Assembly: GCA_963707955.1 (NCBI GenBank)
Contig: OY970176.1
Coordinates: forward strand, 2,282,765-2,346,764
Origin: Candidatus Bathyarchaeota archaeon
GTDB taxonomy: Archaea; Thermoproteota; Bathyarchaeia; Bathyarchaeales; Bathycorpusculaceae
DNA length: 64,000 nt
Direction of reading: 5' to 3'
Each line of letters opens with the position of its first letter. Positions within the stretch are counted from its first letter, which is position 1. A model generated the notes under the pieces. The model worked only from the letters and a program-made list of their open reading frames with translations. It was not told the DNA's origin and made no database searches. This document shows, in pieces, positions 8,245 to 32,081 of the stretch. The position numbers were made by a program, and so were the translations under genes.

Positions 8245-8364
8245 GACTTAGACCCGAATGGGTTTGAGTCCACTGCTTTAAAAATCCTGTAACCAGCATT
8301 CTCTTTGTTCAGGCCAACTGGTTCAGAGCTACTCGACCCCATACCCAAAAGGGTTCAGGTCCTA
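8245..8364 (-). repeat. ~120-bp dispersed att-like element, copy A
   Basis: Reverse complement matches the core agctctgaaccagttggcc...caaagagaatgctggttacagga...aagcagtggactc; ends at CGCGCG. Confidence 0.9.
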
Positions 8365-8482
8365 GCATGCGCGGCGCAGTGCCCAAACCAAGAACGCAGC
8401 ACGTGCTATATGTCGGTTGGCTATTTGTTTCGTTCGAGAAGTCTTATAAGGACAGATATTGGATATTCAAAAGCCAAGGAGC

Positions 8483-9265
8483 ATGATAGATTTGAAGAAG
8501 GCATTTGTAGCGGCATTGACAGTTGTGATGGTGTGCATGTTTCAAATAATGATTCTTCCAGCCATGGCGCAATACGCATGCGGTCTTCAAAGTGGAAAAT
8601 ACGCCAAGTATGACTGGTCAATAACATACTCAGCGATGGGGCAAAGCTACAGCATGAGCGGAACCTTGGACGTCAACATTCAATCTGTATCTGGATCTAG
8701 TTATTCGGGCACGTTTGAGGAGGCCGTAACTGGAGGAAGTGTGCCAACAGGCATATTAACTATCCCTGAAAGCAATCAGACCTTTTCAGGGGATGTCGGA
8801 TCAGGTTCTGGAATCACTGGTTTCATCGATCCTCTTGCAATACCGGCTAACATGACAGCAGGAAGCAGCATTCCAGGTGTTGGCAGTGTGCAGCAAATCG
8901 GAAGTTGGGGCGGCAGAAGCGCAGTCGTACTGTATTCAAGCGGGCTCAGCCTTGGTCAGGGGAACTGGTATTATGATGAAACCACAGGGATATTCCTGTC
9001 TGCAACGACCACATTTGGTTATGGAGGTGTCTATTCGCTTAATTACAAGTTGGAGATGGTCGGAACTGATCTTTGGAGCGGTGGATTTGGCGGTGGTGGT
9101 CTTCTTGGACTTGACCCATGGATATGGGCCGTAATTATCGTAATCATAGTGGCTGCTGTTGCTGCTGTTGCTGCTGTGGCAGTAAGGATGCGTAGGAAGA
9201 AGCTGCCTACTGCTCCCACTCCAACTCCACTTCAACCGCCTCCTCCTCCGACGCCGCCAGCATGA
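8483..9265 (+). CDS. Secreted/membrane-anchored protein with Pro-rich cytoplasmic tail
   Basis: Signal peptide; WYYDETTGIFL motif; C-terminal TM + RRKK + poly-Pro. Confidence 0.8.
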   Translation: MIDLKKAFVAALTVVMVCMFQIMILPAMAQYACGLQSGKYAKYDWSITYSAMGQSYSMSGTLDVNIQSVSGSSYSGTFEEAVTGGSVPTGILTIPESNQTFSGDVGSGSGITGFIDPLAIPANMTAGSSIPGVGSVQQIGSWGGRSAVVLYSSGLSLGQGNWYYDETTGIFLSATTTFGYGGVYSLNYKLEMVGTDLWSGGFGGGGLLGLDPWIWAVIIVIIVAAVAAVAAVAVRMRRKKLPTAPTPTPLQPPPPPTPPA

Positions 9266-9715
9266 TCTGACGGAACTACAAGGCATTACAAATTCCCGCA
9301 CGCGCTTTTCTAATTAGAAATAGAAGCGGCTATTAGGCTAGGCAAATCCATTCGTTCAATCTTGAAGTCTCGCGCCATCCATTGGACATTTGAGCGGATA
9401 ATTCTCTTTGCTCAACATTCGTTGGCTGTCGTAACATCAAGAAAGACGGAAATGGGGTACTTGCAAGAATTGAAAGAGAATCCTACTCCTTCTAAAAGTC
9501 TATAGACTGAAGTTCTGATTGAGTTACAGCATGCTCTGCTTAAAGGGACGCCCTCGCAACAAAGATTTCTCAAACTCTTGTTAAGATGTCAAAGAACTTG
9601 TTGAGCGCGCGCTTTCCAGCAAGATTCACTACAACCAGCTCAAAACTATTCCACAAGCTTCGGAAACACTTTTTTGTGTAGGCTGACAAGACTGAAGCAG
9701 GGTGTAGAGTCGAAC

Positions 9716-10741
9716 ATGCATCATCCAAGGATAAAGGGTTCATACTGCGAAATGGGATGCAGGTATGGAGCCATACTGCATAGGCATGGCTTCAAAGTTT
9801 CAGCACAACCAAAGGAAAAACTTGACTTTGCCCTTGAATCTGAGTCCGAAGTAAAAAGAATCTTTCCAGAAATATTGGACGAAATACGAGGCTTCGCAGA
9901 AGGCTGCCATGCTTCATACCAAGACATGGCATCTTTCATGATGACAATTGGAGCATTCAAGCCTCAACCAATGTGTAGCAGCTTCGCCGCGTTCAACGGC
10001 TCCGATGTGATATTCGGGAGAAACTATGACTTCTTTTACAGCTTCAAGAAGTACACGGAAAGCTATCTGACTGCGCCGCAGGACGCATTTATCAGTCTGG
10101 GGCATTCTGATGTCTTCATAGGAAGAGAAGACGGAATCAACGAAAATGGCTTGGCCATCGCAATGACGGGCGTGTGTGAGAAAAAGGTCAAACCTGGAAT
10201 CAGCTTCGTACTGGCAGTGAGGCTCGTACTCGACAAGTGCGCAAATGTCAAAGAAGCCGCAAAAAGCCTTTTGAACATGCATGCGTCGGCTGACGCCAAC
10301 TTTCTGTTAGCTGACAAAGCAGGCGACATGGCCGTTGCCGAAGTCTCGCCGGACAAGGTTATGATCCGCAAACCAAAGAATGACGAGAACTTCATCGTTT
10401 GCACAAACCATTTCGTTCTTCCTGAAATGCAGCAGTACGAGGACTTGGAGCGCCGAAGCAGAGAAAATTGGGACACGATACCACGTTACGATGCAATATC
10501 TGAAGGCGTACGCAGGGCAGGAAGCAAGATGAATTTTGAGAAAGCGCAAAGGATAATGTCAGACCACACTGGCTGGGTATGTTCTCATCAGGACAACAAA
10601 AAGCTAGGAACGTTATGGTCGATAACAGCTGGCCTCAAGAATCTTGAAGTGTTCCGAGCTGAAGGAAATCCTTGCCGAACGAAATACAGAGAAGACCCGA
10701 GACTCAAAAGAGAAGCTCAGAAACAGAAACGCAAGAGCTAG
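9716..10741 (+). CDS. Peptidase C45 / Ntn-hydrolase family protein
   Basis: CSSFA (autocleavage nucleophile), GRNYD, DGINENGL, CTNHF. Confidence 0.9.
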   Translation: MHHPRIKGSYCEMGCRYGAILHRHGFKVSAQPKEKLDFALESESEVKRIFPEILDEIRGFAEGCHASYQDMASFMMTIGAFKPQPMCSSFAAFNGSDVIFGRNYDFFYSFKKYTESYLTAPQDAFISLGHSDVFIGREDGINENGLAIAMTGVCEKKVKPGISFVLAVRLVLDKCANVKEAAKSLLNMHASADANFLLADKAGDMAVAEVSPDKVMIRKPKNDENFIVCTNHFVLPEMQQYEDLERRSRENWDTIPRYDAISEGVRRAGSKMNFEKAQRIMSDHTGWVCSHQDNKKLGTLWSITAGLKNLEVFRAEGNPCRTKYREDPRLKREAQKQKRKS

Positions 10742-10750
10742 CGTACGCGG

Positions 10751-10819
10751 ACAACTGATGAGTACTGTAAGTTGGTGGAGGCAGGATTCAGCTACGTGTG
10801 TGACGTTGGTGATAGTTAG
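10751..10819 (+). pseudogene. Fragment resembling the extreme C-terminus of an archaeal tyrosine integrase
   Basis: TTDEYCKLVEAGFSYVCDVGDS*; begins right after GCGTACGCG; assignment is from memory of the LxEAGFEYV tail motif. Confidence 0.45.
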
Positions 10820-10957
10820 TTGGGGTAAAGTTTTATCTTTCTCTCTCTCAATTTCTTACGCACACGACGACGCTCTAATTCTAACGCGCTAACTCTCCCC
10901 TACTCACTCACTCTCTCTACACACACGCACACACACAGAGACAGACAAAGCACGCGC
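10810..10957 (-). repeat. Low-complexity TG/AG tract with GATAAAACTTTACCCC motif (copy 3 of 4)
   Basis: Directly downstream of the second NosD gene. Confidence 0.55.
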
Positions 10958-12750
10958 TAGGAACGGTTATGCTTTTTCTTGTGGATTGCTATTGCTGACA
11001 GTGTCGCTAACATGGACATTGCTAATATGAGAAAATCAGGAAACTCGGGCATTATTGTAATCTGTTCTGCTGAGTGGCCGTAGGTGAAGTACAGGCAGGT
11101 GTTACTGCTGTTTGAGACGGGCAAGAGGCTGTATTGAACCTGCGTCCCATTAACGAACACGCTGAGAGTGCCGTTTAACATCGCTGTTGGTATGCACACG
11201 TTGCAGAAGCCCGTCGTACCGTTCACGCCTGAAACGTTGAAGAGTATAGCGGTTCCGTTGAACTGAAAATCAGAAACCGTGGAGTTGCTCACAACCTGAA
11301 CATCAACGCCTTGTACAACATTGAAGTCTGAGAATCCTCCCATCAGAGGGTAAAAATCCGTGTTATTGGCGTCAATAACGTATGGTGTGTCGCCTATGCC
11401 GTCGCTTCCAGTCACATTCTGATATTGCCCGCTGTACAGGTCCGTACGGTTGTAGTCGCTCCAATAGTTGCCGCCTGAAGGATAGTCGTTGTCCCAAGTG
11501 TTGCCGATGGATGTGCTGTCGACTAAAGTCTGGGCACCGTTCCCAATGAAATTGTTATGGTATATCGTGTTGTTTGAGGAAGAATTGTCGAGCCAAATGC
11601 CACTACCATAACTATTTGCTGTGACGTTGTTGCCAGATAGAACATTGCCAGAAGAATTGTCGAGCCAAATGCCAGCATAGTAGTTTGCTGTGACGTTGTT
11701 GCCAGACAGAATATCGCCAGGAGAAGAGTAGAGATAAATGCCATACCAGCCGTTAGCTGTGAGGTTGTTGCCGATGATTTTTGAATCAGTCGTGTTTGCC
11801 AGCGTGAGTCCCCCATAATTTCTCGTGAGAGCCAAGCCTTGCACTGTCACGTTCTTGCAGTTGACGAGGCACACGTACCCAACGCCCTCGGGATAAGTCT
11901 GGGGGCTTATCACGATGTTCGACTTGTTCATCAGGTAGTACACGGGCTTACCCTCCACGAGGTTTGAAGTGTCAACATGATTCACAAAATCGCTCAAAAC
12001 ACTGCCAGAGGCGCTGCCAGAGACGCCAAAGTTGTAGGTGTTATCTGCTATCACGTTGTCAGACAGAACATTGCCAGAAGAAGCGCGGAGATAAATGCCA
12101 TAGATGTTTGCTGTGGCGGTGTTGCCTGACACGGTATTGTTATCAGAAGAAGAAAAGAGCTCAATACCATCAAAGACGTTTGCTGTACTGTTGTTGCCTG
12201 ACACGGTATTGTTATCAGAAGAAGAGCCGAGGTTAATTCCAAAGCCGTTTGCTCTGACGTTGTTTCCGCTTATGCTGCTGCTGTTAGAATATTCGAGATC
12301 GATGCCACCCCCGCTGTTTGCTGTGACGTTGTTGCCGCTAACAGTGTTGTTTGAAGAAGAGTAGAGATAGATCCCTTCTTGGAAGTTTTCGATGTTGGCG
12401 TTTTCGATCGTCACGTTGCTTATGTCCGTCAGGCTTAGACCATATCCGCTTAGGTTTCCTTGTACAGTGTAGCCGTTTCCGTCGATTACGGTGTTGTTTC
12501 TTTCGACGACGATTCCGTTGTAAGCTGGGTAGCTGACGTTGCCAGTTAGCGTGTACGTGACGTTGTTAACGCTTGAAATAGGTGCGGAAGACGGAGAAAC
12601 GCTTCCGTCACTGTTAATATAAACGGTTTCATTTGGTGCATGGACAAGCCCAATGTTAAACGCCAAGGCGAACGTGCCTGCAAGAAGCAACGACAAAATC
12701 ATCAAAGAAACAATTCTCCTCATTCTACTCTCCCTGCCCACTACAAACAT
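10957..12750 (-). CDS. Secreted NosD/parallel beta-helix surface protein with PEF-type anchor
   Basis: Signal peptide (start could be 12723); PbH1 repeats; last ~170 aa nearly identical to 2974..6372. Confidence 0.9.
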   Translation of the reverse strand: MFVVGRESRMRRIVSLMILSLLLAGTFALAFNIGLVHAPNETVYINSDGSVSPSSAPISSVNNVTYTLTGNVSYPAYNGIVVERNNTVIDGNGYTVQGNLSGYGLSLTDISNVTIENANIENFQEGIYLYSSSNNTVSGNNVTANSGGGIDLEYSNSSSISGNNVRANGFGINLGSSSDNNTVSGNNSTANVFDGIELFSSSDNNTVSGNTATANIYGIYLRASSGNVLSDNVIADNTYNFGVSGSASGSVLSDFVNHVDTSNLVEGKPVYYLMNKSNIVISPQTYPEGVGYVCLVNCKNVTVQGLALTRNYGGLTLANTTDSKIIGNNLTANGWYGIYLYSSPGDILSGNNVTANYYAGIWLDNSSGNVLSGNNVTANSYGSGIWLDNSSSNNTIYHNNFIGNGAQTLVDSTSIGNTWDNDYPSGGNYWSDYNRTDLYSGQYQNVTGSDGIGDTPYVIDANNTDFYPLMGGFSDFNVVQGVDVQVVSNSTVSDFQFNGTAILFNVSGVNGTTGFCNVCIPTAMLNGTLSVFVNGTQVQYSLLPVSNSSNTCLYFTYGHSAEQITIMPEFPDFLILAMSMLATLSAIAIHKKKHNRS

Positions 12751-12813
12751 AGCCCTAATTAACTTTTAAGTTTATCTAAGCAACAACCAGAAGATTCCTA
12801 GACGGCTCGCTCA

Positions 12814-12942
12814 TTAGGCTAGGCTCGCTATTCTTGGAATCCATGTTTCTCGTTCATTCCTCAGAAACTTCGCAAGCAAATAAGCTTCTTCATTAATCAA
12901 CGTGTCAAGGGTCTATTTACTGCCATGTCTGATTCTTGGAAT
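12814..12942 (-). pseudogene. Cas1-like C-terminal fragment (copy 2, internal stop)
   Basis: IPRIRHGSK*TLDTLINEEAYLLAKFLRNERETWIPRIASLA*; starts right after CGCGCG (12943-12948). Confidence 0.5.
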
Positions 12943-13054
12943 CGCGCGGTTTACCCAGGATCTTTCGGAGCCGCTTATCTAACAGTCTCTTTTTGGCAGT
13001 ATTTGTCCACTCGGCAACACTGGTTGGAGATCCCAGCGGGCGCTAAATAGCGCG

Positions 13055-14047
13055 TTAATTCGATGCTTCTTTAGCGCGCGTTTTCAAAGTTTCTGAGGCC
13101 TTTTCTGCCCATTTCGGGTCCTTCCAGAGCGCTCTGCCCACGGCCACCAGGTCAACTTTGCCGTCTCGAACTAGTCTGTCAGCATGCTCGGCCTCGGTGA
13201 TTCCTCCTACGCCTATGACTGGAGCATTGACGGCCTTCTTTATCTCGTAGGCCTGAGGAATGAAGTAGCCCTTGACGTTTCGAAGCTGCTTGGGCTCGCT
13301 TCCACAAAGGCCGCCTGACACGTCGATGATGTCGACGCCATTTTGCTCAAGCTTCAAGGCAAAGGCAGCCGAATCCTCAACCTGCGTTCCTTTCGGGGCA
13401 AGGTCGTCCGCGCCTAAACGGTAGAGTAGAAGTTTGCCTCTAACTCTTTCTCGAACCGCGTTAACTACCATGAGGGGAAAACGTGTCCTGTTCTCCAAGG
13501 AACCCCCGTACTCATCTCGACGCTTGTTGAACAGGGGTGAGAAGAACTGGTTGAGCAGGAAACCGTGCGCCCCATGAAGCTCCACACCGTCAAAACCGGC
13601 TTTAACCGCGCGATCGGCAGCCATGGCGAACTCTTCTACCAAAGCCTCAATCTCATTTCTTGTCAGTTCGCGGCTCTTCTCCGTTGCAGAGGGGCTCGTA
13701 GGCTCTGCGCCGATGATTTTCTCGTTCGCGATGCCCCCCGCATGGGTAATCTGTACAACGACAGGAGTGTCGACCGCGTGTATGGCGCCCGTAAGCCTCT
13801 CTAACCCGTCGATCAACTCGTCATCGTACATGCCTAGCTGCTTTGAACTCAACTTTCCACTTGCAGAAACGAAAGAGTGCTCCACAATGAGCAGGCCTAG
13901 CGCCGCTGAACGCCTAACATAGAACTTGATGAGCCTGCCAGTGACGGCGCCTTTAACCGTGGCTCGACCTGTTTGCATAGGAGGCATAACTATCCGGTTC
14001 CTGAAGATCAGATCCTTCACTTCTAGAGGATCAAGAAGCCCCACCAA
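13055..14047 (-). CDS. NADH:flavin oxidoreductase (Old Yellow Enzyme family)
   Basis: RNRIVMPPM, AGFDGVELHGAHGFLLNQFFSP, RRDEYGGSLENR, DLVAVGRAL. Confidence 0.95.
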   Translation of the reverse strand: MVGLLDPLEVKDLIFRNRIVMPPMQTGRATVKGAVTGRLIKFYVRRSAALGLLIVEHSFVSASGKLSSKQLGMYDDELIDGLERLTGAIHAVDTPVVVQITHAGGIANEKIIGAEPTSPSATEKSRELTRNEIEALVEEFAMAADRAVKAGFDGVELHGAHGFLLNQFFSPLFNKRRDEYGGSLENRTRFPLMVVNAVRERVRGKLLLYRLGADDLAPKGTQVEDSAAFALKLEQNGVDIIDVSGGLCGSEPKQLRNVKGYFIPQAYEIKKAVNAPVIGVGGITEAEHADRLVRDGKVDLVAVGRALWKDPKWAEKASETLKTRAKEASN

Positions 14048-14347
14048 CTCCCAACACCAAGAAGACTACAGACTAGTTCACGTCTATAAGAACATAGCAC
14101 AAGTGCGGTAAGAACAAGGCCACAAAAAGATGTTGCCTCTCTGCCCTTCCTCAGCGCGCGCCGCACGCTATTCATTGCCTTACATAAGGAAGCTCTGCAT
14201 ATATGCATATCTTTGGTAAGAAACATAAATGCTAATGTACTAAACAAAATTGTGGTTGAAATCACACAGAGGACATCAAAATCGAAGAAGTTTTATAACA
14301 TAGCAACTGAAAGTTAAATGTGCCTCGTACGTAAGGAGGTGAAAAAA

Positions 14348-14668
14348 ATGGAACGTAGAGCCAACCCATGGGAAATATTCAACGAGGAAAGGCCTGAGGT
14401 TGTGAAAGCTTTCCAAGAAATGATGAAGCGCGTTAACAAAAACAATGTCCTTGACAAAAAGACGATGGCACTAATCTATGTTGGCATCTGCTCTACGATA
14501 CGAGAAGCAGGCGCGCTGCGTCATTTCGTCGGTGAGGCATTAACAGCTGGAGCAACGAAGGAAGAAGTAGAAGCAGCGGCCTTACTTGCTTTCACTACAG
14601 GGGTTTCCTCCGCAGAACTAAGCCTACCTATAATCCTCGATCTCGCCAGGAAAACTAAACAAAAATAG
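14348..14668 (+). CDS. Carboxymuconolactone decarboxylase (CMD/AhpD-like) family protein
   Basis: LDKKTMALI...HFVGEALTAGATKEEV; AAGGAGGTGA Shine-Dalgarno upstream. Confidence 0.85.
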   Translation: MERRANPWEIFNEERPEVVKAFQEMMKRVNKNNVLDKKTMALIYVGICSTIREAGALRHFVGEALTAGATKEEVEAAALLAFTTGVSSAELSLPIILDLARKTKQK

Positions 14669-14850
14669 CGCTACATCGCGTTGAGAGGTCGCAATTGTGT
14701 CATAATGGCTGCCAATTCTGCCTCTAAGAAGAGCGAGCGCTATTGTGCAGCGCGCGCTATCGTAACATGTAAATCTGTCTCCTCACAGCAAATCCTTAAT
14801 TGTGTATGCGACCAAGAGCGTCGTTGCCGAACTGGGAGAGGCGCAAGGGA

Positions 14851-15699
14851 TTGATTAAGCGAGTTAGTATCGTTCTTGCGAATTATTGTCCGCACTGTGT
14901 ACCGTTTTCTCTGCGTAATGCTAACAAAATGTCCAGAGACCTTGGGGTTCCGCTTCTTACTCTTGACATAGAGATCCCCGAGCAGCTTGAGGCGGCTGAC
15001 AGGCTCGTCGAAGAACACGGCGATTGGTCGGAGGATTATCTTATCCCTCAAGTCTTTGTTGAACACATGGACGGGAGAGTTAATCACGTATTAACTGGTT
15101 TTTCAGAGGCAGTTTCGGTGACAGAACGTTCTTGGAAAGCGCTGTTTTCGAGTAGTTACTATCAAAGTCTCGTACATGGAGAACCGGCTATCTCGTTGCC
15201 TCACTCATCATCCCGTCGTAAGTCGTTGAAGGAGTTTGTGGAGGCATACCTAACGTTCGATGGACAATGTTACAGGCACTGCGATAGCCCTTCCTCCTTC
15301 GTAGATCTGCGATCCGACTCGGATAATGTCATCGGAGCATACGTCTGCCCCGGCGGATACGTGTCTAGGGTTGTCTACTTCAGTGTTTACCCAGATGTCA
15401 AGCAATTAAGAAGCTTCCTTATCTCCCAAGTCGGTAAGGAAATTGTTAACGATCGCGATATCCGTCCAGCCACTAGGCACGGGTGGGAATTGGGAGGTGA
15501 TGCTTTGGCTGAGATTGGTGAAGTGAGCCCCACCGGTGTCATAAAGGAGATCTATTGGACAGTCTATGCCAAAACCGAAGACGAGAGAAGACGTGGAGTT
15601 TTTATCTGCTCACATCCTAGGAAAGGAATGGGATGTAACAGACTATTCGTTCAAGACAAGAAGTCAAGAAACAGATTGTGCCCAAAGTGTAAACAGTGA
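14851..15699 (+). CDS. Thioredoxin-like (YCPHC) protein with Cys-rich C-terminal domains
   Basis: YCPHC and cis-Pro-like IPQV; CYRHC; CSH...C...CPKC. Confidence 0.65.
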   Translation: MIKRVSIVLANYCPHCVPFSLRNANKMSRDLGVPLLTLDIEIPEQLEAADRLVEEHGDWSEDYLIPQVFVEHMDGRVNHVLTGFSEAVSVTERSWKALFSSSYYQSLVHGEPAISLPHSSSRRKSLKEFVEAYLTFDGQCYRHCDSPSSFVDLRSDSDNVIGAYVCPGGYVSRVVYFSVYPDVKQLRSFLISQVGKEIVNDRDIRPATRHGWELGGDALAEIGEVSPTGVIKEIYWTVYAKTEDERRRGVFICSHPRKGMGCNRLFVQDKKSRNRLCPKCKQ

Positions 15700-15876
15700 A
15701 GCGCGCGCTAAGGCTTTCTCTAATTTGGTGACTAGAGATAATGGCTTTTGAAAAAGCCGTTTTCCCTATTCCACACCCAACAGGTTTCTAAGCGAAATCC
15801 ACACTTTAAGGCTTGCCCAGTAACCGCGAGTTAGAAGATTCTTCTCAATCACCAGCGCGCGCTCCAAGATGATGAC

Positions 15877-16662
15877 CTACTTGATTTTCTCTGCAACTTT
15901 TGACTTGATGTATCTTGAACGATACCAATATAGAGCCGACACGAATGTTAGTGCTAGGATGCATACTGAAAGAATTTGGTAAACAAGAGGAAAAAGAACG
16001 ATGGAAGGCAAAAGGGTCAAAAGCAAAATACCAATCAATGTCGGAATGACTGTCTTAAGTTTGCGATTTGTAAGCAGATAATATCCGACAGTCACTAGAA
16101 ACAGAATGGGTATGGAAACAAGCAATCCCTTAAAAAGACCAATAAATAACAACACGAATGGAAAGAGCGTAAAAAACAAGACTACGCCAGTAGCGAAAAG
16201 CAAGCTACCAACTATTTTTTGGAGAAGAGATGGTTTGCCCAAATATTCCTGAGTTGGTTTTGGACGTGAAGCCCGTTGTGGCTCAGTTTTCTCTTGCTTC
16301 TGTTCAATGCCTTCAATGCGTGCTGTTTGTTGGGGTTTATGCTTCTGGTAGTATCTCCTGTAGGAAAGAAGGATAATTGAAACCACCAATGACCAAAGAA
16401 GAAACTGCGATTCATCGGGAAGCTGGATGAGGAAGATTAGACTCGAAGGAACCACAAGCAAAGAACCGCCCAGTAGTGCTATCACAGAACGTCTAAATCC
16501 TAAATCGACCAGAAGAAAGCAAGCCTCTCCAAGAATAAGAGCAACCAACCAACCGAACATCAAGGCTCAGAGCAAACCGAATCGAAAGACAAACGGGATG
16601 CCTAACAAGAGAAGCAAAAATCCCAAAATTATGAGCAATAGCCCAGTTGTTCTCTTGAGCAT
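15877..16662 (-). pseudogene. Multi-pass membrane protein with an in-frame TGA at 16569-16567
   Basis: ATG 16662 MLKRTTGLLLIILGFLLLLLGIPFVFRFGLL* is in frame with the 228-aa hydrophobic ORF. Confidence 0.6.
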
Positions 16663-16760
16663 CGGCAAGCGATTTCTCCGCATGCTACGTTCTCCTAACC
16701 CACGATTAGTTCTATCCGTTAAGTTGCACTATAACTTTTCTGCACAATAAGAAATACTCC

Positions 16761-17839: not shown

Positions 17840-17918
17840 AGCGCCTATGGTAAGAGGTTGATGAATTGATGAAATGGAAGTCCGTGAACTAAACCTGACG
17901 GCGCGCTGAAGAATGAAC

Positions 17919-17946
17919 TGAACCCATTTAGGTCTAAGTCCGGGCG
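17919..17946 (+). repeat. Att-like element, partial copy B (right end only)
   Basis: tgaacccatttaggtctaagtccgggcg, lying between two GCGCGC sites. Confidence 0.7.
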
Positions 17947-18451
17947 AGCGCGCTGGCTTTCTCTCTAGGCGAATTACACAATACGCTAAGGACACGTTGG
18001 ATTCGACCATTGAAACTAGACTTTTGTTGAGTTATCTGTGATGCCTAAAACGTGTTTTGGCAAATGGGACTGCAAAGAGTTTGGAGACACACTAGTAAGA
18101 TTGTTCTACCAAGTAGCTAGTGGTTCTTGACAGCATTACTAAGTGGAAAATAGCGCGCGTTAATCCACGAAGGCGCTCTCAGCAACCTCGTCAACCAAGC
18201 ACTGGGAAACACACAGCGTGATACCTATCCTTCCGTGATCCATAAGCACTATAAAAACAAGCTTGATCTAGACTAAAAATGATCGCGCGCGCAAGAAAAC
18301 TGCTCAAATCTGGCGAACCCGGTGCAAGAAAAAAAGGGAATGAGGTTGGGAATGGTTCTAGCTGTATTGGAGGTTTTGTATGCGGCTCTCGTACGAGGTT
18401 GTTCCCCAGTAGAACGTGGATGAGGTTATCTTAAGTTGGCGGTTGTAGACA

Positions 18452-21545: not shown

Positions 21546-21708
21546 GCAGCTCTGATCAGTTGGCCTAAGACAAAGAGAATGCTGGTTACAGCATATTTGA
21601 AGCAGCGGGCTCGAACCCGTTTAGGTCTAAGTCCGGCTCGGCCCATTTTTAGCAGAGAGAGAAAGTGGACTTGACCCCGTTTGGGTTCTAATCCCAACCG
21701 GTCCACCA
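21546..21708 (+). repeat. Att-like element copy C with two tandem tRNA-3'-end-like tails
   Basis: Core repeat, then AAGTCCGGCTCGGCCCA, then a second right end with AATCCCAACCGGTCCACCA. Confidence 0.9.
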
Positions 21709-21732
21709 CCGTTTTTGCTGCTCGCCTCTGGT

Positions 21733-22703: not shown

Positions 22704-22788
22704 ATCAGAGACCTCCAATCAGGATCGACCAGTCAACATATGTCAACTTAGACAAGGGGACACGACGGTATTTAAATCGCGCGCGCTC

Positions 22789-22886
22789 GGGACGGGCAGC
22801 TCTGAATCAGTTGGCCTAAGACAAAGAGAATGCTGGTCACAGGATATTTGAAGCAGCTGACTCGAACCCATTTGGGTTCTAATCCC
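22789..22886 (+). repeat. Att-like element copy D
   Basis: Core repeat begins just after CGCGCGCGC (22778-22786). Confidence 0.9.
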
Positions 22887-22997
22887 TAGAGACCAATTCC
22901 GGAAACGGTACGAATCCTTATAGTTCTGCCTTTCTTGCACAAGCGCGCGCTAAGTGGCTTTTCACGGCCGTCTTGAGGCGTGCGAGTTCTCTTTTAC

Positions 22998-23856: not shown

Positions 23857-24101
23857 TGTTCTACTCGATTTTTCATGCTCGTTCGTTTTGATTCCGCCGT
23901 AGCTGCACTTTTTTCTGTCCTGTCGAAGCATGTTGCACCTGTTAATTCATGTGTGAAGATGTCGGCGATAGAACTCTCGGTTTTCTTTTGGTCTGGAACA
24001 TGCATGAGACTCGGAGCGCGGCTTGTTCTCACTAAGTGCCTTTCCGCGTGTATATTTTACTTTCGGTCTGTTTGGCGAATATTTTGCGTAAAAAGTAAAA
24101 G

Positions 24102-25235: not shown

Positions 25236-25285
25236 GTCAGCACCGTTAGCGTGTTATAGGCAGTGTGACTTTAGAAACTTTTGGT

Positions 25286-25495
25286 CTAACCAAGTCCGCC
25301 TAACACCATCGGCGTTCCGCCGCCTGGAACAGGATCACCCATCATCGGACTCGCGTAATCGGCTGTTGGCGCGTGCACGTCGAGTACTTTCCATCCGAGG
25401 CTCTTTGCGAAGACTGTGGGGATTATTGCGGCGGCAAGGACTGCTGAGCACAACAGGACAAGCATAGGCAAGAACTTGACGATTTTTGAGGCCAT
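25286..25495 (-). CDS. Secreted 69-aa peptide (putative signalling propeptide)
   Basis: Strong AAAGGAGGTGA Shine-Dalgarno; signal peptide ending ...VFA; C-terminal MGDPVPGGGTP. Confidence 0.75.
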   Translation of the reverse strand: MASKIVKFLPMLVLLCSAVLAAAIIPTVFAKSLGWKVLDVHAPTADYASPMMGDPVPGGGTPMVLGGLG

Positions 25496-25726
25496 GTGTT
25501 CACCTCCTTTTACATTCGGTAATAGAAATCATGCTTATCTAGCATAAATAAAAAACGTCTGTGAGGGTAACGCTCAGCGCGCGTTTGGCAATGGAACCAA
25601 CACGTTCTGCTCTCTAGGGTGCTCTAGAGTTGACAGTGACGCGTCAAAGTAATCGTTAAATGGGCAGAGGACAATTACAACGTGCCTGAGCTGCTTGGCG
25701 CTCGCCGTTTTGGAGATGAATCATGA

Positions 25727-27862
25727 ATGAGCACGGAAATAGGTGAGGATGACTCAGGAAATGCCGCTTCGGGTTTCCTGTTCTTAGGCAAAACCGTGGT
25801 TGATGAGACTGAGGTTCTGTTGCCGATTCAGGCTTTCAAGCGTCATTTCATGGCGCTCGGGGGAAGCGGTTCGGGTAAGACCGTGCTGTGCAAATGTGTC
25901 ATTGAGGAGGCCGTGCGGAACAACGTTCCAGTCCTAATAGTCGATCCGCAGGGGGACATTTCGTCCCTTGCGATAAAGGGTGACGTCGAGGAGTTGATGC
26001 GGCACGGGACAGCGGTTGAAGTGCAGGAGGACTTTTTCAGTAAGGCGCGTGTAGCGATTTTTACTCCTGCGAGCAACAGGGCGATTCCGATATGTGTCAA
26101 CCCTTTCAGGTCTCCTTCACAGGACATTCCGCATGAGGAGGCGGTACAGGCCATCGATCTCACGGCGGATTCTCTAGCGGGCTTCCTAGGTTATGATCTA
26201 AACGGGGACGCTGGAAAAAGTGCGAAGGCTTACATCTTCACGATTCTGGAATACATGTGGCAACAGGGACAGAGAATCGGTGACATGGCTCAACTCGCCG
26301 ACGTCGTATTGAACCCTCCTGAGAAGATTACTGCGACTCTGAACGGTCTTGTGGCGAAGAAAGAACCTGAGGAGATTGCCCGAAAGCTGCGTTTCTTGAC
26401 AGTGGGCACTTCGTCGCTCATGTTTCAGATGGGAGTCCAAATAGACATCAACCTGTTCGTGGACAACAGCGATGGAAAAGTACCGGTGAACATAATCTAT
26501 CTTAACACGTTGACGTCTGAGAACGATAAACAGTTTTTCTTGGCTACGTTGCTTAAGGAGCTTTATTGTTGGATGCTGAAGAACCCCTCCAACGATTTGC
26601 GGATGCTCTTCTACGTTGATGAAATCTCACCTTACATTCCACCCTACCCGAGGAACCCGCCGCCAAAAAACGCTTACACGCTCCTGTTTAAGCAGGCGAG
26701 AAAGTACGGCATAGGACTCGTTGCGGCCACCCAGAACATCACGGACATAGACTACAAAGCATTGGCGCAGGTCAACACGTGGTGTCTAGGCCGCATGATG
26801 ACAACCCAAGACATCGCGAGAGTCCAGAAAATCATTCAGTCCATCGACCCCGTACATGCTGATGCCGTTTTGCAGAAACTGCCCAGCCTGCAGACGGGCG
26901 AGTTTCTTCTCCTGTCTCCAGACCTGTACAGTGACGTAGTCGATTTTGACGTTCGGTGGTTGGTCAGTAAACACTTGACGTTGGACGAGAGGAATCTCGC
27001 CCAGTACGTGCCCGCAGAATCAAGGGCCTTTTTCGAAAAACACGTGCAGGCGGATGTCATGAAGAAATGGACCAATGCTGCCCATTTTGAACCGTCTAAG
27101 ACTCTGGATGAAAAGATTCAACGGTTACTCCGTTCAGAAGGAAGGGCCGTTCCAGCATTGTTCGTAGCAACGGACCTGAAGATAAGTCAGGGGGACTCTG
27201 AGAGGGTCTTGGCTAGTCTTGTAAAAGCTGGAATAGTCAAGAAGGGCCGAAACAAGGCTGATGGTGAAACCTTGTACTGGCTGTCAGAATTCAACTTGGA
27301 CCCGTCTATAGGCATTAGAGGTGAAGTGTTGATGATTTCTCCAGTAATCAGCCAAGCAGAAGCCGTGAAAAAGTCTGCTCCTCTGCTTGAGGGGGGAGTG
27401 TTTCATAAAGACGAGCAAGTCTACGATGCTGAGTTCCGCTATGTGCCCCTCTGGAGAGTGAGGGCAACCAAAGAAACACGATTGCTTCTCGTCAAGAAGA
27501 AAGAGGCACGCACATACTACGTCAGCGGAGAGATGGGTGACCTCGTATCGCTGGAAAAAAGGGAGATAATGTTTCACAAGTTGCTTTCAGGCACGTCTCA
27601 GAAACTCAGAAATCTGGATGAGGACAAACGCTTTACATTCGTCTCAAAAATGCCCGGCGAAATGGACAAGTTACCCCAGATAAGGCTAAGCAAGAATAAA
27701 GCGTGTCAGACGTTGGAATTGAAGATAGGCGTGAAGTCAGAGTCAGCGGAACTGGTTCTGCTGCCCATCTGGAGCCTTAAGGTGCAGCACAAAACGAAGA
27801 AGGCAAGACGCACAATCAACATGGATGCAGCCACGGGACGCCTGCTTGTTGGGAACGTTTAG
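25727..27862 (+). CDS. HerA/FtsK-superfamily (DUF87/DUF853-like) ATPase with C-terminal wHTH-like extension
   Basis: GGSGSGKT Walker A, IVDPQGD, FYVDE Walker B, ARKYGIGLVAATQ. Confidence 0.9.
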   Translation: MSTEIGEDDSGNAASGFLFLGKTVVDETEVLLPIQAFKRHFMALGGSGSGKTVLCKCVIEEAVRNNVPVLIVDPQGDISSLAIKGDVEELMRHGTAVEVQEDFFSKARVAIFTPASNRAIPICVNPFRSPSQDIPHEEAVQAIDLTADSLAGFLGYDLNGDAGKSAKAYIFTILEYMWQQGQRIGDMAQLADVVLNPPEKITATLNGLVAKKEPEEIARKLRFLTVGTSSLMFQMGVQIDINLFVDNSDGKVPVNIIYLNTLTSENDKQFFLATLLKELYCWMLKNPSNDLRMLFYVDEISPYIPPYPRNPPPKNAYTLLFKQARKYGIGLVAATQNITDIDYKALAQVNTWCLGRMMTTQDIARVQKIIQSIDPVHADAVLQKLPSLQTGEFLLLSPDLYSDVVDFDVRWLVSKHLTLDERNLAQYVPAESRAFFEKHVQADVMKKWTNAAHFEPSKTLDEKIQRLLRSEGRAVPALFVATDLKISQGDSERVLASLVKAGIVKKGRNKADGETLYWLSEFNLDPSIGIRGEVLMISPVISQAEAVKKSAPLLEGGVFHKDEQVYDAEFRYVPLWRVRATKETRLLLVKKKEARTYYVSGEMGDLVSLEKREIMFHKLLSGTSQKLRNLDEDKRFTFVSKMPGEMDKLPQIRLSKNKACQTLELKIGVKSESAELVLLPIWSLKVQHKTKKARRTINMDAATGRLLVGNV

Positions 27863-28004
27863 AAGCATTTGCACGCTAAATGGCGCGCGCTTGTTACAGT
27901 TTATGTGTCTCCAACCCCTAGGGAAAACCTTTCGAATCAAATCGTCGGAAACACAGAATAGTGAAAAAAGCACACGAGTCACTTAAGATAGCGCTTGCTC
28001 GGTT

Positions 28005-28135
28005 GGTCCTGAACCCTTTTGGGTATGGGGACGGGCAGTTCTGAATCAGTTGGCCTAAGACAAAGAGAATGTTGGGTACAGGATATTTGAAGCAGTGGAC
28101 TCGAACCCATTTGGGTTCTAATCCCAAGAAGCCCA
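28005..28135 (+). repeat. Att-like element copy E (full length)
   Basis: Both GAACCCwTTTGGGT hairpins present; tail AATCCCAAGAAGCCCA. Confidence 0.9.
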
Positions 28136-28271
28136 TTTCTTTTTGGCAATGGAACCGGTCCTGTCCACCAATCAACAAAATTAGCGCACGCTAATATCTA
28201 CTCAGGTGACTTGAAAAAAGAATATAAAAACGGGGAGAAAACCAATCTTAGAATAGAGCTGTTGGCTTGAT

Positions 28272-28421
28272 CTAGTATCGGTCTCTTCTTGGGGGTGCTC
28301 TCTTAGCGTAACATTCTCGGCAGTATACTGGTCTGCTGCCATCAGGCTTGAATGGCACTTCACATTCCTTTTTGCATTCAGCGCAAACTGCCTTGTACAT
28401 TTCTTTTCTCTCATATGTCAA
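28272..28421 (-). CDS. CxxC-x17-CxxC zinc-ribbon microprotein
   Basis: AVCAECKKECEVPFKPDGSRPVYCREC. Confidence 0.9.
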   Translation of the reverse strand: MTYERKEMYKAVCAECKKECEVPFKPDGSRPVYCRECYAKRAPPRRDRY

Positions 28422-28790
28422 CTCTCTCAACTCCTTTACGGTTGCTGTGCAAAAATCACTTCTTACACGCTGCACCTACCCTTCACACCGACACTTATAA
28501 ACAAATGCCTCATAAATCATAAAGCCTAGACTCATAGAGTCTGAATCAGAGAACAACAGACGCCCGCGCCCCATTGTTACGGAAAATCTTTACGTATCAC
28601 CCGCCGCGCAGCGCGCGCGCAACTTTGCCATGCCCAGAAGCCTTCAGAACCGTAGTTCTCCGGTGTTCGTTGTGAATATACCCTGACCGTGAGAACTACC
28701 CGCACGCGACGGGCTGTGGTAAAGATTTATATTTGTGAGCACTTTTGCCTTATTCGGACTAGTAAAATTAACCTTGGATGGAGGGTTTGT

Positions 28791-30440
28791 ATGGCTTATT
28801 TGACAACAACTGCGACGGGCCAACCAGTTTTAATTCTTAAGGAAGGTACGACCCGAAGCAGAGGAAAAGAAGCTCAGAGAAACAACATGATGGCAGCTCG
28901 TGTGATTGGTGAAGTGTTGAAGACGACTTTGGGACCGCGCGGTATGGACAAGATGCTCGTTGACAGCTTGGGAGACATAACGATAACGAATGACGGTGCA
29001 GTAATACTGAACAAGATGGAAGTTGAACATCCAGCGGCGAAGATGATGGTGGAAATCGCAAAAACACAGGACGACATGGTGGGCGATGGGACAACAACCG
29101 TCGTGGTGCTTGCAGCCGAACTACTGAAAAAGGCTGAGGAGCTTCTAGAACAGAATATACACCCGACAATAATTGTAAGCGGCTACCGCAAAGCAGCGCA
29201 AAAGGCGGTTGACGTCATAAACAACATCGCAATCCAAGTGGACATCGAAGACCGTGCAACACTCAAGAAAGTCGCGGTGACCTCGATGGCGAGCAAAGCG
29301 GTCGGTGCAGCAAAGGAACATTTGGCAGACATCGCCATTGACGCTGTGAGACAGATAGCCGAAACACGTGGAGACAAAATGCTAGCGGACATAGACAACA
29401 TCCAAGTGATAAAGAAAACTGGTAAAAGCGTCTTCGAATCCCAACTCGTCAAAGGCCTTGTGATAGACAAGGAAGTTGTTCACCCTGGAATGCCCAAAAA
29501 AGTCGAAAAAGCAAAAATAGCCTTGCTCGACTGCGCTCTAGAAATCGAGAAAACGGAGATGAGCGCTGAAATACGGATACGTGACCCAAACCAGATGAAA
29601 GCGTTCTTTGATCAAGAAAACAAGATGTTACAGGGCATGGTTGAGAAAATCAAAGCCTCGGGCGCAAACGTTGTTTTCTGCCAGAAAGGCATAGACGAGA
29701 TGGCTCAACATTTTCTGGCAAAAGAGGGAATAATGGCTGCTAGAAGAGTGAAACAGTCAGACATGGAAAAGCTGACAAGAGCGACAGGTGGAAGAATAAC
29801 CTCAAATCTGGCCGATCTAAGAGCGCAGGACTTGGGCGCGGCAGGCATCGTTGAAGAACGTAAGCTTGGCGAAGACAAAATGATCTTTGTCGAAAAATGC
29901 AAGGACCCACGCTCAGTTGCTATCATCATAAGAGCTGGACTCGAAAGAATGGTTGACGAGGCGGAAAGAGCGATGACTGACGCCTTGTCGGTTGTTTCCG
30001 ACGTGATAGAGACTAACAAGATAGTTGCAGGCGGCGGTGCAGTAGAAGTCGAAGTGGCCAAAGAATTGCGAAACTACGCTACAAGCGTGGGCGGAAGAGA
30101 ACAACTTGCAATAGAAATGTTTGCCGACGCCGTTGAGGTAATACCTAAAACCTTGGCTGAAAACGCGGGACTGGAGCCCATTGACATAATCGTGGAATTG
30201 AGAGGCGCACATGGGAAACCAGAGGGTCAATACAAGGGCGTGAACGTTTTCACAGGAAAGGTTGAAGACATGTGCAAAGAAGGCGTCGTCGAACCAATAA
30301 TCGTGAAAGAACAAGCAATGAAGTCAGCCACAGAATCCGCAGCAATGATACTCCGCATAGACGACGTGATAGCCTCAACCAAACCCAAAGAAGGACCGGG
30401 AGCAGGCAAACCACCTGGCGGCGCAGAAAGCGAAGATTAG
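28791..30440 (+). CDS. ths: Thermosome subunit (group II chaperonin)
   Basis: [37 protein letters not shown]. Confidence 0.98.
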
Positions 30441-30525
30441 AAAGGTTTCCCCGTTCTTCTTTTTCCAACTCTATTTTTGCATACCAAGAACTCAGTGTGA
30501 TTGCATAGCGATTTAGTGCGCGCTA

Positions 30526-30654
30526 CTAAGCACTTGCTTTTATTTCTCCTTTGAAAACTCGGTAGCACCTTTCTGAGCAGAAGCCTTGAAAATCATTGTC
30601 TGACATGAATATTTTTCCACAAGTTTTGCACTTCTGCTTAGTCCTTTCCTGCAT
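30526..30654 (-). CDS. 42-aa zinc-finger microprotein (below the ORF-track cutoff)
   Basis: MQERTKQKCKTCGKIFMSDNDFQGFCSERCYRVFKGEIKASA*; GGAGG Shine-Dalgarno; stop followed by TAGCGCGC. Confidence 0.7.
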   Translation of the reverse strand: MQERTKQKCKTCGKIFMSDNDFQGFCSERCYRVFKGEIKASA

Positions 30655-30984
30655 TCACTTCCTCCCCGTTCATGTTCAATTGAACAGGGTTAAGTTCAGG
30701 AGAACATGATACGGAAGGACTTTACGCCGACCGAGATTGTAACAACTACAGCAAACATCCGCATTAGAAAAGCAAGGAGGTGGAAAAGAATGATTGATGA
30801 AGACGAAGATTCTGAAGATAAAGACGAAGAGCGCGTGCGAGGTAGCTGAATAAGCCTGATTAGTCTGTTAAGCCTGGTAAGCCTCACTCGCGCATGCACG
30901 CGCACACGAGCACAGCGTTTTGCGATTGATCGTGATAAACAACACTTTTAAGTTATTTGATGCTAATTAAGAAAGCAATTCTGA

Positions 30985-31500
30985 GTGGTTGAAACCATGA
31001 AAATGAGAATGATAAAACTACGCCCTGAATTCCTCATAGAAAAACTACAAGGAAAAGTATCATCTTTCACTTCCAACCTGCCAGACGATATAGAACTTTT
31101 AGATATTAAGTACGACTTGTTTTCCAAGCAAGTATCGGCAATCATAAGAAGCGACAGTTTTGAAGACGTTGCAGAATCCTATCTAATTCCCGAATTCAAT
31201 ATAATCTACACGACAAACCCCAAAGCCGAATCTCAGCCCACAACAAACTCCAAACCTGAATCTAAGCCCACAGAGAAAACGCCGGTTCAGCCAAGTCAAG
31301 ACACAAGCGCAGTAGAAAAAGAATTCAGCCCAGAGCAGCGCAAGTTGTTAAGTTTCACAGCAGACGGAGAATACGTCATAATAAAGCCAAATCAATACTT
31401 GAAGAATGAGTGGGATGAAATTAACGATACTGTGAGAAGTTTAGGTGGTAAATGGACGAAAGGCGACAGCTTCAGCCATTGGGCAATTCGACGAACCTAG
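30985..31500 (+). CDS. Hypothetical protein
   Basis: 171-aa ORF, two domains with a P/S/T linker; C-terminal WDEINDTVRSLGGKW. Confidence 0.7.
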   Translation: MVETMKMRMIKLRPEFLIEKLQGKVSSFTSNLPDDIELLDIKYDLFSKQVSAIIRSDSFEDVAESYLIPEFNIIYTTNPKAESQPTTNSKPESKPTEKTPVQPSQDTSAVEKEFSPEQRKLLSFTADGEYVIIKPNQYLKNEWDEINDTVRSLGGKWTKGDSFSHWAIRRT

Positions 31501-31948
31501 CGAGCATAAAGCAAAGTACCCAAAGACTAGTTTCTTTAGCTAGCTGGCTAACTAGCTTTTTTCACCATTCATAGAACTTGCAAGCATATCCTTTTACTTC
31601 CCAAACCCAAACGCAACTATTTGTTACCTTTAGAATGTTTTGCAAGAAGCGAAACCTGCTTTTTCTCTTTTCTTTTCAGTTCTTTCTCTCGCCGTAATTT
31701 TTTATGCTGCTCTAAACCTGCAGCTTTCGTTTCTCTTCTTGACAAAACTCATCAACTTTAGCAGGCAGTAGAAACATTTAGCATTTCAAAGCGTTGTCCT
31801 TTTGTCTACAACTGAAGGGCGTATACTCGATTCGCGCGCGCTAAGGTTAAGAAGGCTTGAAAAGACGCTACATTAACCTGGCCCGCTTTCATTTTGTATG
31901 GCATCCAACGCTTCCGACAAGCGACATACTCATCTAACCCAACTCTGA

Positions 31949-32081
31949 TAGGGTCTTGAACCCATTTGGGTTCGGGGACGGGCAGCTCTGAACCAGTTGG
32001 CCTAAGACAAAGAGAATGCTGGTCACAGGATATTTAAAGCAGTGGACTCGAACCCATTTGGGTCTAAGTCCGAGCGGGCCC
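31949..32081 (+). repeat. Att-like element copy F (full length)
   Basis: Perfect GAACCCATTTGGGTTC hairpin at the left; tail AAGTCCGAGCGGGCCC. Confidence 0.9.

Follow-up and report, generated by a model that had tools for sequence, protein, structure and literature searches.

The window, as we call the whole 64,000-nt stretch of Bathyarchaeal DNA analysed here, contains five copies of a repeat of about 120 bp and two solo hairpin units. Their basic module is a 28-bp palindrome with an 11-6-11 layout, for instance GGACTCGAACCCATTTGGGTTCTAATCC at 28097-28124, directly followed by a 3' fragment of a tRNA gene. Read on the opposite strand, its left arm gives the tRNA T-arm consensus. The composite repeat starts with a left module whose tRNA-Pro tail is cut, continues through a 58-nt core and ends in a second module. 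The first-pass annotation had described a single unit bounded by two equivalent hairpins, a picture that does not hold, because a shortened 3' piece of tRNA-Pro is attached to the left hairpin. Left modules with the complete piece, ending ...GGGCAGCCCCACCA, are present in other genomes, and the module is widespread in Bathyarchaeia. The core of two copies carries single-base indels and is therefore not coding.

Repeat copies and the mosaic around them

The first composite (8245-8362, minus strand) consists of a left module with its cut Pro tail at 8335-8362, the core, and a right palindrome at 8245-8271, behind which a CGCGCG run (8240-8245) cuts off the tail. The remaining units are on the plus strand. 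The solo hairpin unit at 17918-17953 (hairpin 17918-17941) partly lacks its left arm, carries a tail three mismatches from a tRNA 13-mer, and is flanked on both sides by GCGCGC runs (17901-17906 and 17948-17953). A composite without left module follows at 21546-21645 (repeat part 21546-21634), in which core and right palindrome (21607-21634) lead into a tail at 21633-21645 that is identical over 13 of 13 nt to the 3' end of tRNA-Ile(GAT). The second solo unit lies 60 nt behind this copy, at 21667-21708 (palindrome 21667-21694); its tail, 21693-21708, has one mismatch in 13 to tRNA-Ala(TGC), the similarity extending into the CC.TTTTT flank. The composite at 22789-22947 (repeat part 22789-22885, right palindrome 22858-22885) also has the core and lacks the left module, which is replaced at a GC run (22778-22786), and its tail is of non-tRNA type; the stretch 22859-22947 is common to two places in the sister species G007 at 86-87% identity and ends at another GC run (22943-22950). 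Both modules are present in the composite at 28005-28132 (repeat part 28005-28124), with the left module at 28005-28032 and a Pro remnant, then the core, the right palindrome at 28097-28124 and a tail ending GAAGCCCA, and in the last composite at 31952-32081 (repeat part 31952-32071; left module 31952-31979, core, right palindrome 32044-32071), whose tail is two mismatches from tRNA-Val(CAC).

Six copies had been noted initially, and the repeat is indeed present at all six places, but the one at 17918 is a solo hairpin unit rather than a composite. Likewise, the letters of the four tails quoted at that stage are correct, but the tail ending in CCACCA belongs to the solo unit at 21667-21694, which had not been counted. 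With up to two mismatches, the hairpin pattern matches the window 15 times, three palindromic sites being scored on both strands, compared with a mean of 0.91 and a maximum of 4 in 100 shuffles. An nhmmer profile built from the five long copies gives five full-length matches, all in the window (E-values 7e-43 to 7e-37); the rest of the 2.35-Mb genome yields the right-hairpin-plus-tail part only.

The surroundings of the copies are variable. From 1 to 32 kb the window is a non-syntenic mosaic that matches five relatives in scattered pieces only, with cargo genes on both strands, and long synteny with the sister genome G001 (92%) resumes at 32074, within the last tail. The window is also devoid of complete tRNA genes, as had been noted: ARAGORN finds none, Rfam at gathering score finds none, and none of the 44 RF00005 matches of the genome lies inside. 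One well-delimited piece of the mosaic is a plus-strand element at 25584-28156, bounded by 15-nt direct repeats (25584-25598 and 28142-28156), with a single gene for a HerA/FtsK-like ATPase (25727-27862) and a composite at its right end. Its part 25584-28133 is 93% identical to G007:C9, where the element directly follows tRNA-Lys(CTT) and has the composite at its far end; synteny between our genome (G000) and G007 stops 19 nt past this tRNA. Between two composites, a plus-strand thermosome segment (28620-30667), which starts at a GC run (28611-28620), shares 94% identity with one place in G009, the remaining thermosome genes in five relatives reaching 76-81%. The flanks of the composites are unrelated among G000, G001 and G007, and composites occur in variable DNA only. 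The copies sit stranded in this tRNA-free mosaic, as first proposed. Several islands may have been stacked or shuffled into a tRNA-free hypervariable region that takes up at least 1-32 kb of the window, with the last tail, at 32070, probably marking the old chromosomal side; we infer this stacking rather than observe it, since the composite clusters of G000, G001 and G007 have no tRNA nearby.

tRNA 3' ends behind the palindromes

Are the tails tRNA ends? Compared with the tRNA 13-mers of this genome, four of the seven tails in the window differ by 0 (Ile), 1 (Ala), 2 (Val) and 3 mismatches, far better than chance: among 5000 random 18-mers, 1 reached at most one mismatch, 6 at most two and 42 at most three. 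The remaining three (8252, 22864 and 28103) are 4-5 mismatches from every tRNA found in G000. The relation extends beyond this genome. Among 70 distinct archaeal units from other genomes, an acceptor-plus-discriminator 8-mer of a G000 tRNA occurs at the expected offset exactly in 25 and with at most one mismatch in 42, compared with 16 and 337 of 3500 shuffled tails. Metagenome units behave alike (28 of 81 exact, 43 of 81 within one mismatch), and none of 14 chance matches in bacteria comes within one mismatch of a tRNA 8-mer.

A comparison of an empty and an occupied site reveals what these tails are. In G001, tRNA-Val(CAC) with its CCA runs directly into its flank. In G000 the same gene lacks the CCA and is followed by 3.5 kb, the palindrome, the old 3' end with CCA, and then the same flank; palindrome, old tRNA-Val 3' end and flank are likewise present in G007. 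An 18-nt common block, from the end of the T-loop to C74, is collinear with G001, as is the flank. Hairpin and tail are therefore the right junction of a 3.5-kb island in tRNA-Val(CAC). The right arm here is distinct from the T-arm of the tRNA itself, which places the exchange to the right of the palindrome, within the 18-nt block.

The same arrangement recurs. A tRNA, an island and a hairpin with the tail of that tRNA, all on one strand, are found at six loci in other Bathyarchaeia (Val, Gly, Ala and three times Pro; 196-1331 nt), and G000 has two further pairs of a tRNA and a matching unit, at tRNA-Pro(TGG) over 1.0 kb and at the tRNA at 1126018 over 7.0 kb. Insertion into the 3' part of a tRNA gene that is kept whole is seen at the Val site and for the HerA element beside tRNA-Lys(CTT) in G007, and at the Val site and in the six same-strand pairs the distal end of the island carries a second, directly repeated copy of the tRNA 3' segment with the native flank behind it. 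The module is thus the right-hand junction of islands (attR; attP in the free form), and the ~120-bp repeat forms the right end that one island lineage of this genus has conserved.

Together, the tails, the empty Val site and the recurrent tRNA/unit pairs support the initial proposal that the repeats are attachment ends of one integrative family that targets several tRNAs. We give a probability of roughly 65% to the reading that small gene islands, inserting at tRNA 3' ends in Bathyarchaeia, left them as junction scars. The island supplies a replacement for the final 11-19 nt of the tRNA, by which the gene stays whole, while the former 3' end, encoded CCA included, and the native flank are displaced beyond the island and come to lie behind the palindrome. 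Insertion would proceed by site-specific recombination within the short common block, and because the islands carry no recombinase, the enzyme would act in trans; on the element side it probably binds the palindrome. The ~120-bp repeat may then represent an older, shortened Pro-type module, the 58-nt core and the active palindrome, and the sequence after each copy would be the tRNA fragment or site with which that island last recombined. Two observations sit less well with this scheme. Genome-wide, a missing encoded CCA and a downstream duplicate do not go together: 2 of 9 tRNAs without CCA have a duplicate, as do 11 of 33 with CCA, and this counts against the island model. In addition, half-palindromes lie directly 3' of intact tRNAs at Lys(CTT), Val(CAC), Ala and Ile loci, and units with differing tails occur in tandem, which suggests that some exchanges take place at the palindrome itself, outside the simple model.

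The search for an enzyme and other readings

Which enzyme moves the islands? None of the islands has an integrase linked to it. Pfam detects no recombinase among 32 ORFs of the window (scanned in 1883-40444) or in 41 ORFs around solo units, the Val island has no integrase, and none of the nine PF00589 matches of the genome lies in the window or beside a unit. A phmmer search with these nine integrases, which may miss distant or unrelated recombinases, matched ORFs at 3 of 65 archaeal genome loci, none of them within a tRNA-to-unit island, and at 0 of 80 metagenome loci. None of the 12 integrase matches in the complete genome G041 is located between a unit and a tRNA of the same strand. The search for free or circular forms was likewise negative; a viral collection gave no matches and then one ambiguous match, and in contigs of public sequencing runs the joints at the repeats had sides too short to be reliable.

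Integrase-less elements that borrow a host enzyme, termed IMEX, are known from bacteria, and the palindrome might similarly be a dif-like site for a host Xer-type tyrosine recombinase used by integrase-less islands, with exchange at its 6-nt centre, where any unit could recombine with another unit or with a tRNA end. The idea varies the island reading in enzyme and crossover point rather than being an exclusive rival, and we regard it as unlikely while giving it the most room among the alternatives. The absence of an integrase from the islands, the half-palindromes joined to tRNA ends and the tandem units with differing tails all agree with it. So does the layout: two 11-nt inverted arms around a 6-nt centre, 28 bp in total and read directly from the units, equal the arrangement that the review PMC8371274 gives for dif. 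However, dif is a single-copy site, whereas a strict 20-nt pattern (at most two mismatches) finds 18 places in G000, not all with tRNA-like tails, and the units are multi-copy per genome and tied to tRNA ends. Moreover, the one resolved exchange, at tRNA-Val, sits to the right of the palindrome in the 18-nt common block, and neither a host dif site nor XerA was identified. We offer with similar reserve the broader conjecture that Bathyarchaeia possess a cassette system in which a host-encoded, Xer-like enzyme acts in trans on 28-bp dif-like palindromes that mimic an inverted T-arm. If true, tRNA 3' ends would capture single-gene cassettes, which would later be swapped between palindromes, yielding tRNA-free arrays like that of the window, integron-like in function with unrelated sites and no dedicated integrase adjoining.

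The composite could be a plus-strand gene for a small structured RNA with a tRNA-like 3' tail, which might serve as guide or decoy by pairing with tRNA genes or their transcripts. T-runs follow three of the tails, the core is about 90% conserved between species where the flanks are not, a 9-10-bp core helix keeps its pairing through G-U changes that fit the plus strand only, and the fold of the 8245 copy reaches z-scores of -3.9 and -4.8. Yet the other copies fold like shuffled sequences (z -0.03 to -2.0), covariation is weak (term -0.52; double changes in 3 of 22 pairs, each in one sequence), Rfam reports nothing at gathering score in the whole window and one chance match (E 7.3) in a permissive search of 27950-28200, and a search of the genome turned up neither TnpB nor a Y1 transposase. 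The tail at the Val site continues into the native tRNA flank, which marks it as a displaced gene end, unlike a guide. A non-coding RNA, suggested at the outset as an alternative, is thereby weakened to about the level of an outside chance, with the helix and the 8245 fold scores still in its favour. A miniature transposon of the IS200/IS605 type, moved by Y1 as single-stranded DNA and with tails that are chance flanks, would account for a short non-coding unit bounded by two similar hairpins and for strand-specific, clustered copies; we think it very improbable, as the genome has no match to Y1_Tnp (PF01797) and a single sub-threshold one to the TnpB zinc ribbon (PF07282; 18.5 bits, cut-off 26.3), the tails match tRNAs beyond chance, and the left hairpin is itself a tRNA-Pro-tailed module. 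Least probable of all is a split-tRNA reading, in which the units would encode 3' halves that a common leader brings together in trans with 5' halves. Met, Tyr and Phe are missing from the 43 genes of ARAGORN, to which Rfam adds unnamed candidates only, and many tRNAs here have unusual introns; on the other hand, the fragments begin only at the T-loop or T-stem, the empty site identifies the Val unit as a displaced gene end, and intact Ile(GAT), Ala(TGC), Arg(TCG), Arg(TCT) and Val(CAC) genes are present for the matched tRNAs; for the matched tails this reading is already contradicted.

Small islands at tRNA genes in Bathyarchaeia

How do the proposed junction scars of tRNA-targeting islands compare with known systems? 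Integrons, which also exist in archaea, form cassette arrays with attC sites, and the window resembles them in its short structured repeats between single-gene cargo in a variable region. It differs from them in the tRNA-fragment ends, in genes on both strands and in the absence of an integron integrase or attI nearby; we rejected an integron cassette array, with no PF00589 match in the window, no integron integrase in the scanned ORFs, cargo in both orientations, and two palindromes plus a core in place of the R''-L''...L'-R' order of attC. Streptococcal cis-mobilisable elements are flanked by att sites, lack an integrase and accrete into tandem arrays. They share with our units the att-type junctions without recombination genes and the stacking at one place, but the stacked copies here have differing tRNA tails and lie far from any tRNA, and we know of no helper element for these islands.

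A close likeness is with genomic islands and cryptic integrated elements of the tyrosine-integrase type at tRNA genes, for instance those of the related Thaumarchaeota, for which PMC6563490 reports att sites of only 17 bp (median) within the 3' ends of tRNA genes. Common to both are insertion at the tRNA 3' end with restoration of the gene by the element, a direct repeat that is likewise short (11-19 nt in our islands), the use of many different tRNAs and variable cargo. In contrast to such tyrosine-integrase islands, those described here lack an integrase, are very small (0.2-3.5 kb) and have at their right junction a 28-bp palindrome, conserved class-wide, that resembles an inverted T-arm. 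Fragments of tRNA genes far from the parent gene, explained by integration and subsequent recombination, have been described in Caldiarchaeum, where a mobile element left them scattered (PMC3293823), and in prokaryote genomes (PMC9897764); the Caldiarchaeum case concerns a 5' fragment and a 1.8-kb element that encodes a recombinase, whereas we find 3' fragments, a common palindrome and no recombinase. A full-text search returned no published description of a T-arm-mimicking 28-bp palindrome at island junctions. The islands are thus of the tRNA-targeting kind, and new are the shared palindrome and the lack of an integrase.

The integrase-less islands pose the question of the moving enzyme, which can be tested at the bench with the 28-bp site. 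Island junctions also explain stray tRNA 3' fragments, which are able to mislead tRNA annotation. Sediments hold Bathyarchaeia in abundance; few members are in culture, and little has been learned about their mobile DNA. One short palindrome that flags junctions across the class offers a simple marker to map recent gene acquisitions and integration hot spots in hundreds of metagenome-assembled genomes.

Anatomy of the repeat and its tails

The ~120-bp repeat proposed in the first-pass annotation is real: the window has 15 matches to its hairpin pattern where 0.91 are expected, and a repeat search of the window grouped four direct copies (21546, 22789, 28005 and 31952), to which the minus-strand copy at 8245 matches in inverted orientation. 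An nhmmer profile of the long copies finds five at full length, all within the window, and elsewhere in the 2.35-Mb host genome (G000) detects no more than the right hairpin and the tail behind it. The two hairpins are present, but they are not equal bounding elements, because the left one is itself a module with a cut tRNA-Pro tail. Among hairpin matches outside the genus the complete tRNA-Pro 3' end stands behind this "left hairpin", which makes the basic module a 28-bp palindrome followed by a tRNA 3' fragment; in the composite, the Pro tail is cut after GGGCAG. The ~120-bp repeat is composed of this cut Pro module, a 58-nt core, a second palindrome and a second tail. In 13 aligned copies from five genomes of the genus the core is ~90% conserved, the flanks are unrelated and the tails vary, and a divergent copy on a metagenome contig has the same core with a different first tail. 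The module also stands alone in the window, as solo units at 17918 and 21667.

The palindrome has a CNTTTR centre between two 11-nt arms. The left arm is GGGTTCRARTCC, the T-arm consensus, in reverse complement; the right one is a degenerate T-arm. Could the composite be a structured RNA gene? We consider this improbable. Consensus folding does recover a helix in the core as well as the right hairpin, but covariation is slight, which weakens the RNA alternative raised earlier; folds of single copies extend from the level of shuffles to z = -4.8. No Rfam family is present in the window. Covariation is absent at the outer positions of the arms, where in many units a left-arm C stands opposite A, and we therefore take the palindrome to be a site in DNA and not a stem in RNA. 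RNA contigs of public runs cover cargo genes and none of the composites, which favors neither reading. The DNA contigs of public runs are fragmentary and end at the repeats; where they join one repeat to another, the sides are 20-35 letters long and the joints unreliable. A coding reading was rejected: one minus-strand frame is open, but the core has single-base indels in two copies. In full-text literature searches, which gave background on archaeal elements that target tRNAs, we found no description of the palindrome.

The suggestion that the tails are 3' ends of different tRNAs is borne out for four of the seven in the window. Compared with the list of G000 tRNA 3' ends, the seven window tails show 0 (Ile), 1 (Ala), 2 (Val), 3, 4, 5 and 5 mismatches to a tRNA 13-mer; among 5000 random 18-mers, one had at most 1 mismatch, six at most 2 and 42 at most 3. 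The Ile, Ala and Val tails and the one with 3 mismatches are therefore far beyond chance, whereas three tails have no matching tRNA among those found in G000, two of them being the recurrent non-tRNA types AGAAGCC and TAGAGRCC that are present in many Bathyarchaeia. Outside the window, G000 units carry an exact Arg(TCG) tail and Arg(TCT) and Val(CAC) tails with one mismatch each. Among the matches listed, 42 of 70 archaeal and 43 of 81 metagenome units lie within one mismatch of a G000 acceptor-plus-discriminator 8-mer, against 337 of 3500 shuffled tails and 0 of 14 bacterial chance matches.

Three tails of different type share a flank motif, in which CGTTGAG is followed by TTGGCA and TTCACAA, at window 32074-32110, at genome 1822950 and near position 52781 of contig C5 of the relative G001, so conserved sequence travels with, or lies behind, some tails. 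The window itself has no tRNA gene, as first noted and as tRNA searches of its whole length agree. ARAGORN reports 43 tRNAs in G000, with Met, Tyr and Phe not listed, and in many of them the introns are long or in unusual places; a T-arm-plus-acceptor scan adds candidates at genome 524200, 550565, 595222 and 1526891. An encoded CCA is absent from 9 of 42 scanned tRNA candidates, one of which (1282972) is doubtful.

Islands between tRNA genes and units

The clearest case for these repeats as att ends, the interpretation first put forward, comes from tRNA-Val(CAC), where an occupied site in G000 can be compared with an empty one in G001. In G000 a unit at genome 2012424 lies 3.5 kb downstream of the tRNA on the same strand, and the flank behind its tail is the one that in G001 directly joins the tRNA with its CCA; the 3.5 kb, encoding a zinc-ribbon ORF, a 565-aa ORF and a radical-SAM/SPASM enzyme, were thus inserted, and the island ends at palindrome and tail. 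The palindrome arrived together with the insert, and the tail of the unit is the displaced original end of the tRNA gene. The block common to both junctions is 18 nt long and ends at C74. Six further same-strand pairs of tRNA and unit enclose islands of 196-1331 nt in a like layout, with CCA usually on the displaced copy only.

Several other mechanisms were considered and rejected. A casposon-type target duplication would have a fixed length, and the repeats vary from 11 to 19 nt. Homing by a guide RNA (crRNA- or omega-RNA-like), an idea prompted by units 60 nt apart seen twice, does not fit the Val tail, which is collinear with the native flank, and TnpB is absent; IS200/IS605 or TnpB genes are missing from the genome. 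As for the native flank of the Ala-tailed unit, the nearest homologue of the gene next to it lies in the relative G008 and has no adjoining tRNA.

The composite also stands at an island end, beside tRNA-Lys(CTT) in G007. Window positions 25584-28133, comprising one HerA/FtsK-like gene and a composite, are 93% identical to a stretch of the relative G007 that begins 35 nt after tRNA-Lys(CTT) and ends with a composite; in the window the full element extends to 28156 between 15-nt direct repeats. Synteny between G000 and G007 holds to 19 nt beyond this tRNA and then breaks, and G000 has a different, 3.8-kb island there, ending in a unit at 252165. The HerA-like ATPase was discarded as mobiliser: G000 has a single copy, and of all the loci fetched only the G007 copy carries it. 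Its family is large and conserved (96 clusters within the E-value cut-off), with only distant likeness to HerA, CedB and TraD, and one distant relative occurs in the viral collection. Its structure model has a mean pLDDT of 60, with residues 460-711 confident.

A mosaic stretch of the window and the spread of the module

Window 1-32 kb finds only scattered single-gene matches in five relatives, at 85-95% identity and on different contigs, while 7.9 kb from 32074 on align to a single G001 contig at 92%. This synteny boundary falls within the tail of the last composite, and at the same boundary G001 has a tail-like sequence without palindrome, with a GC run ahead of it. The thermosome gene enclosed by two composites shares 94% identity with one locus of the relative G009, against 76-81% for the other thermosome genes. 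In the composite clusters of G001 and G007, tRNAs are absent and the flanks are not common to the window.

GC runs (GCGCGCGC, consensus TAGCGCGCGCTA) are very frequent genome-wide: the 8-mer occurs 464 times against ~26 expected by our own estimate from base composition, and of the 455 runs with a length of at least 8, 374 lie between genes, with no kind of intergenic region left out. Examples in the window lie at 14750-14757, 15701-15708, 25577-25583, 28611-28620 and 31833-31841. Eight of 35 window ends of segments common to relatives fall within 2 nt of a GC run, including both ends of a 957-bp gene segment (14764-15710), and several repeat copies are cut exactly at such a run. GC runs may themselves serve as sites of recombination or exchange. 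A link of GCGCGC to the units was dismissed, as it lies within 60 nt upstream of 12/68 and downstream of 4/68, near the intergenic background.

Other repeats were observed as well. A ~350-460-bp sequence (28155-28618) with a 70-aa ORF (28202-28414, minus strand) is multi-copy at 75-97% identity in all five relatives searched, one G001 copy adjoining a thermosome gene. Two large NosD/beta-helix genes on opposite strands (2974-6372 and 10957-12750) have a common 579-nt inverted repeat (5832-6410 and 10919-11497, 90%) and internal 66-72-nt tandem repeats. Direct repeats of 31 nt (90%) and 93 nt (77%) lie 7.9 kb apart (40511-40642 and 48432-48568), each copy preceding a run of plus-strand genes, and a TGCATATACG-type repeat at 41370-41410 recurs at 48356-48396.

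Full composites occur in this genus only (G000, G001, G003, G007 and G010). The module is class-wide, with at least 122 matching stretches in species-representative genomes; among the matches listed are 79 loci, 65 archaeal, nearly all from Bathyarchaeia, and 14 bacterial with tails that are not tRNA-like. At least 126 matching stretches come from a metagenome scan. The strict pattern has no match in the viral collection, and a looser one has a single ambiguous match, in which a unit follows a tRNA-Val-like stretch; the fragment is 40% complete and has no integrase.

Recombinase and site of exchange

What moves these islands? An integrase accompanying them, as first expected, did not appear in Pfam searches of the window or of the surroundings of the solo units, and the nine tyrosine recombinases of G000 all lie outside both. 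When the matches listed were searched with these nine by phmmer, 3 of 65 genome loci contained a relative, in no case within a tRNA-to-unit island, and 0 of 80 metagenome loci did. When the ORFs of the 65 loci and the window were clustered all against all, no recurrent protein family emerged beside units. In a complete Bathyarchaeia chromosome with 7 units, no integrase separates a unit from a tRNA on the same strand. This points to an enzyme acting in trans or belonging to an unknown kind.

Two further tRNA neighborhoods were seen. A tyrosine-recombinase ORF at genome 550490-551551 faces a tRNA with an intron head to head, overlapping it as called, and a close homologue (E 8e-77; positions 854-1843 of L105, another Bathyarchaeia contig) adjoins tRNA-Gly(TCC) in the same arrangement. 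A classical 14.5-kb integrated element (genome 654665-669300) has an integrase ORF 52 nt downstream of tRNA-Ser(GCT) and at its far end a copy of the tRNA 3' end (669289) with no palindrome, so a second att type coexists in G000.

The exchange in the Val case is located in the 18-nt shared block, unlike an exchange at the palindrome. However, half-palindromes directly joined to tRNA ends, together with tandem units that carry different tails, are a hint that the palindrome itself is the place of some exchanges, and the dif-like layout of the palindrome would fit such an exchange.
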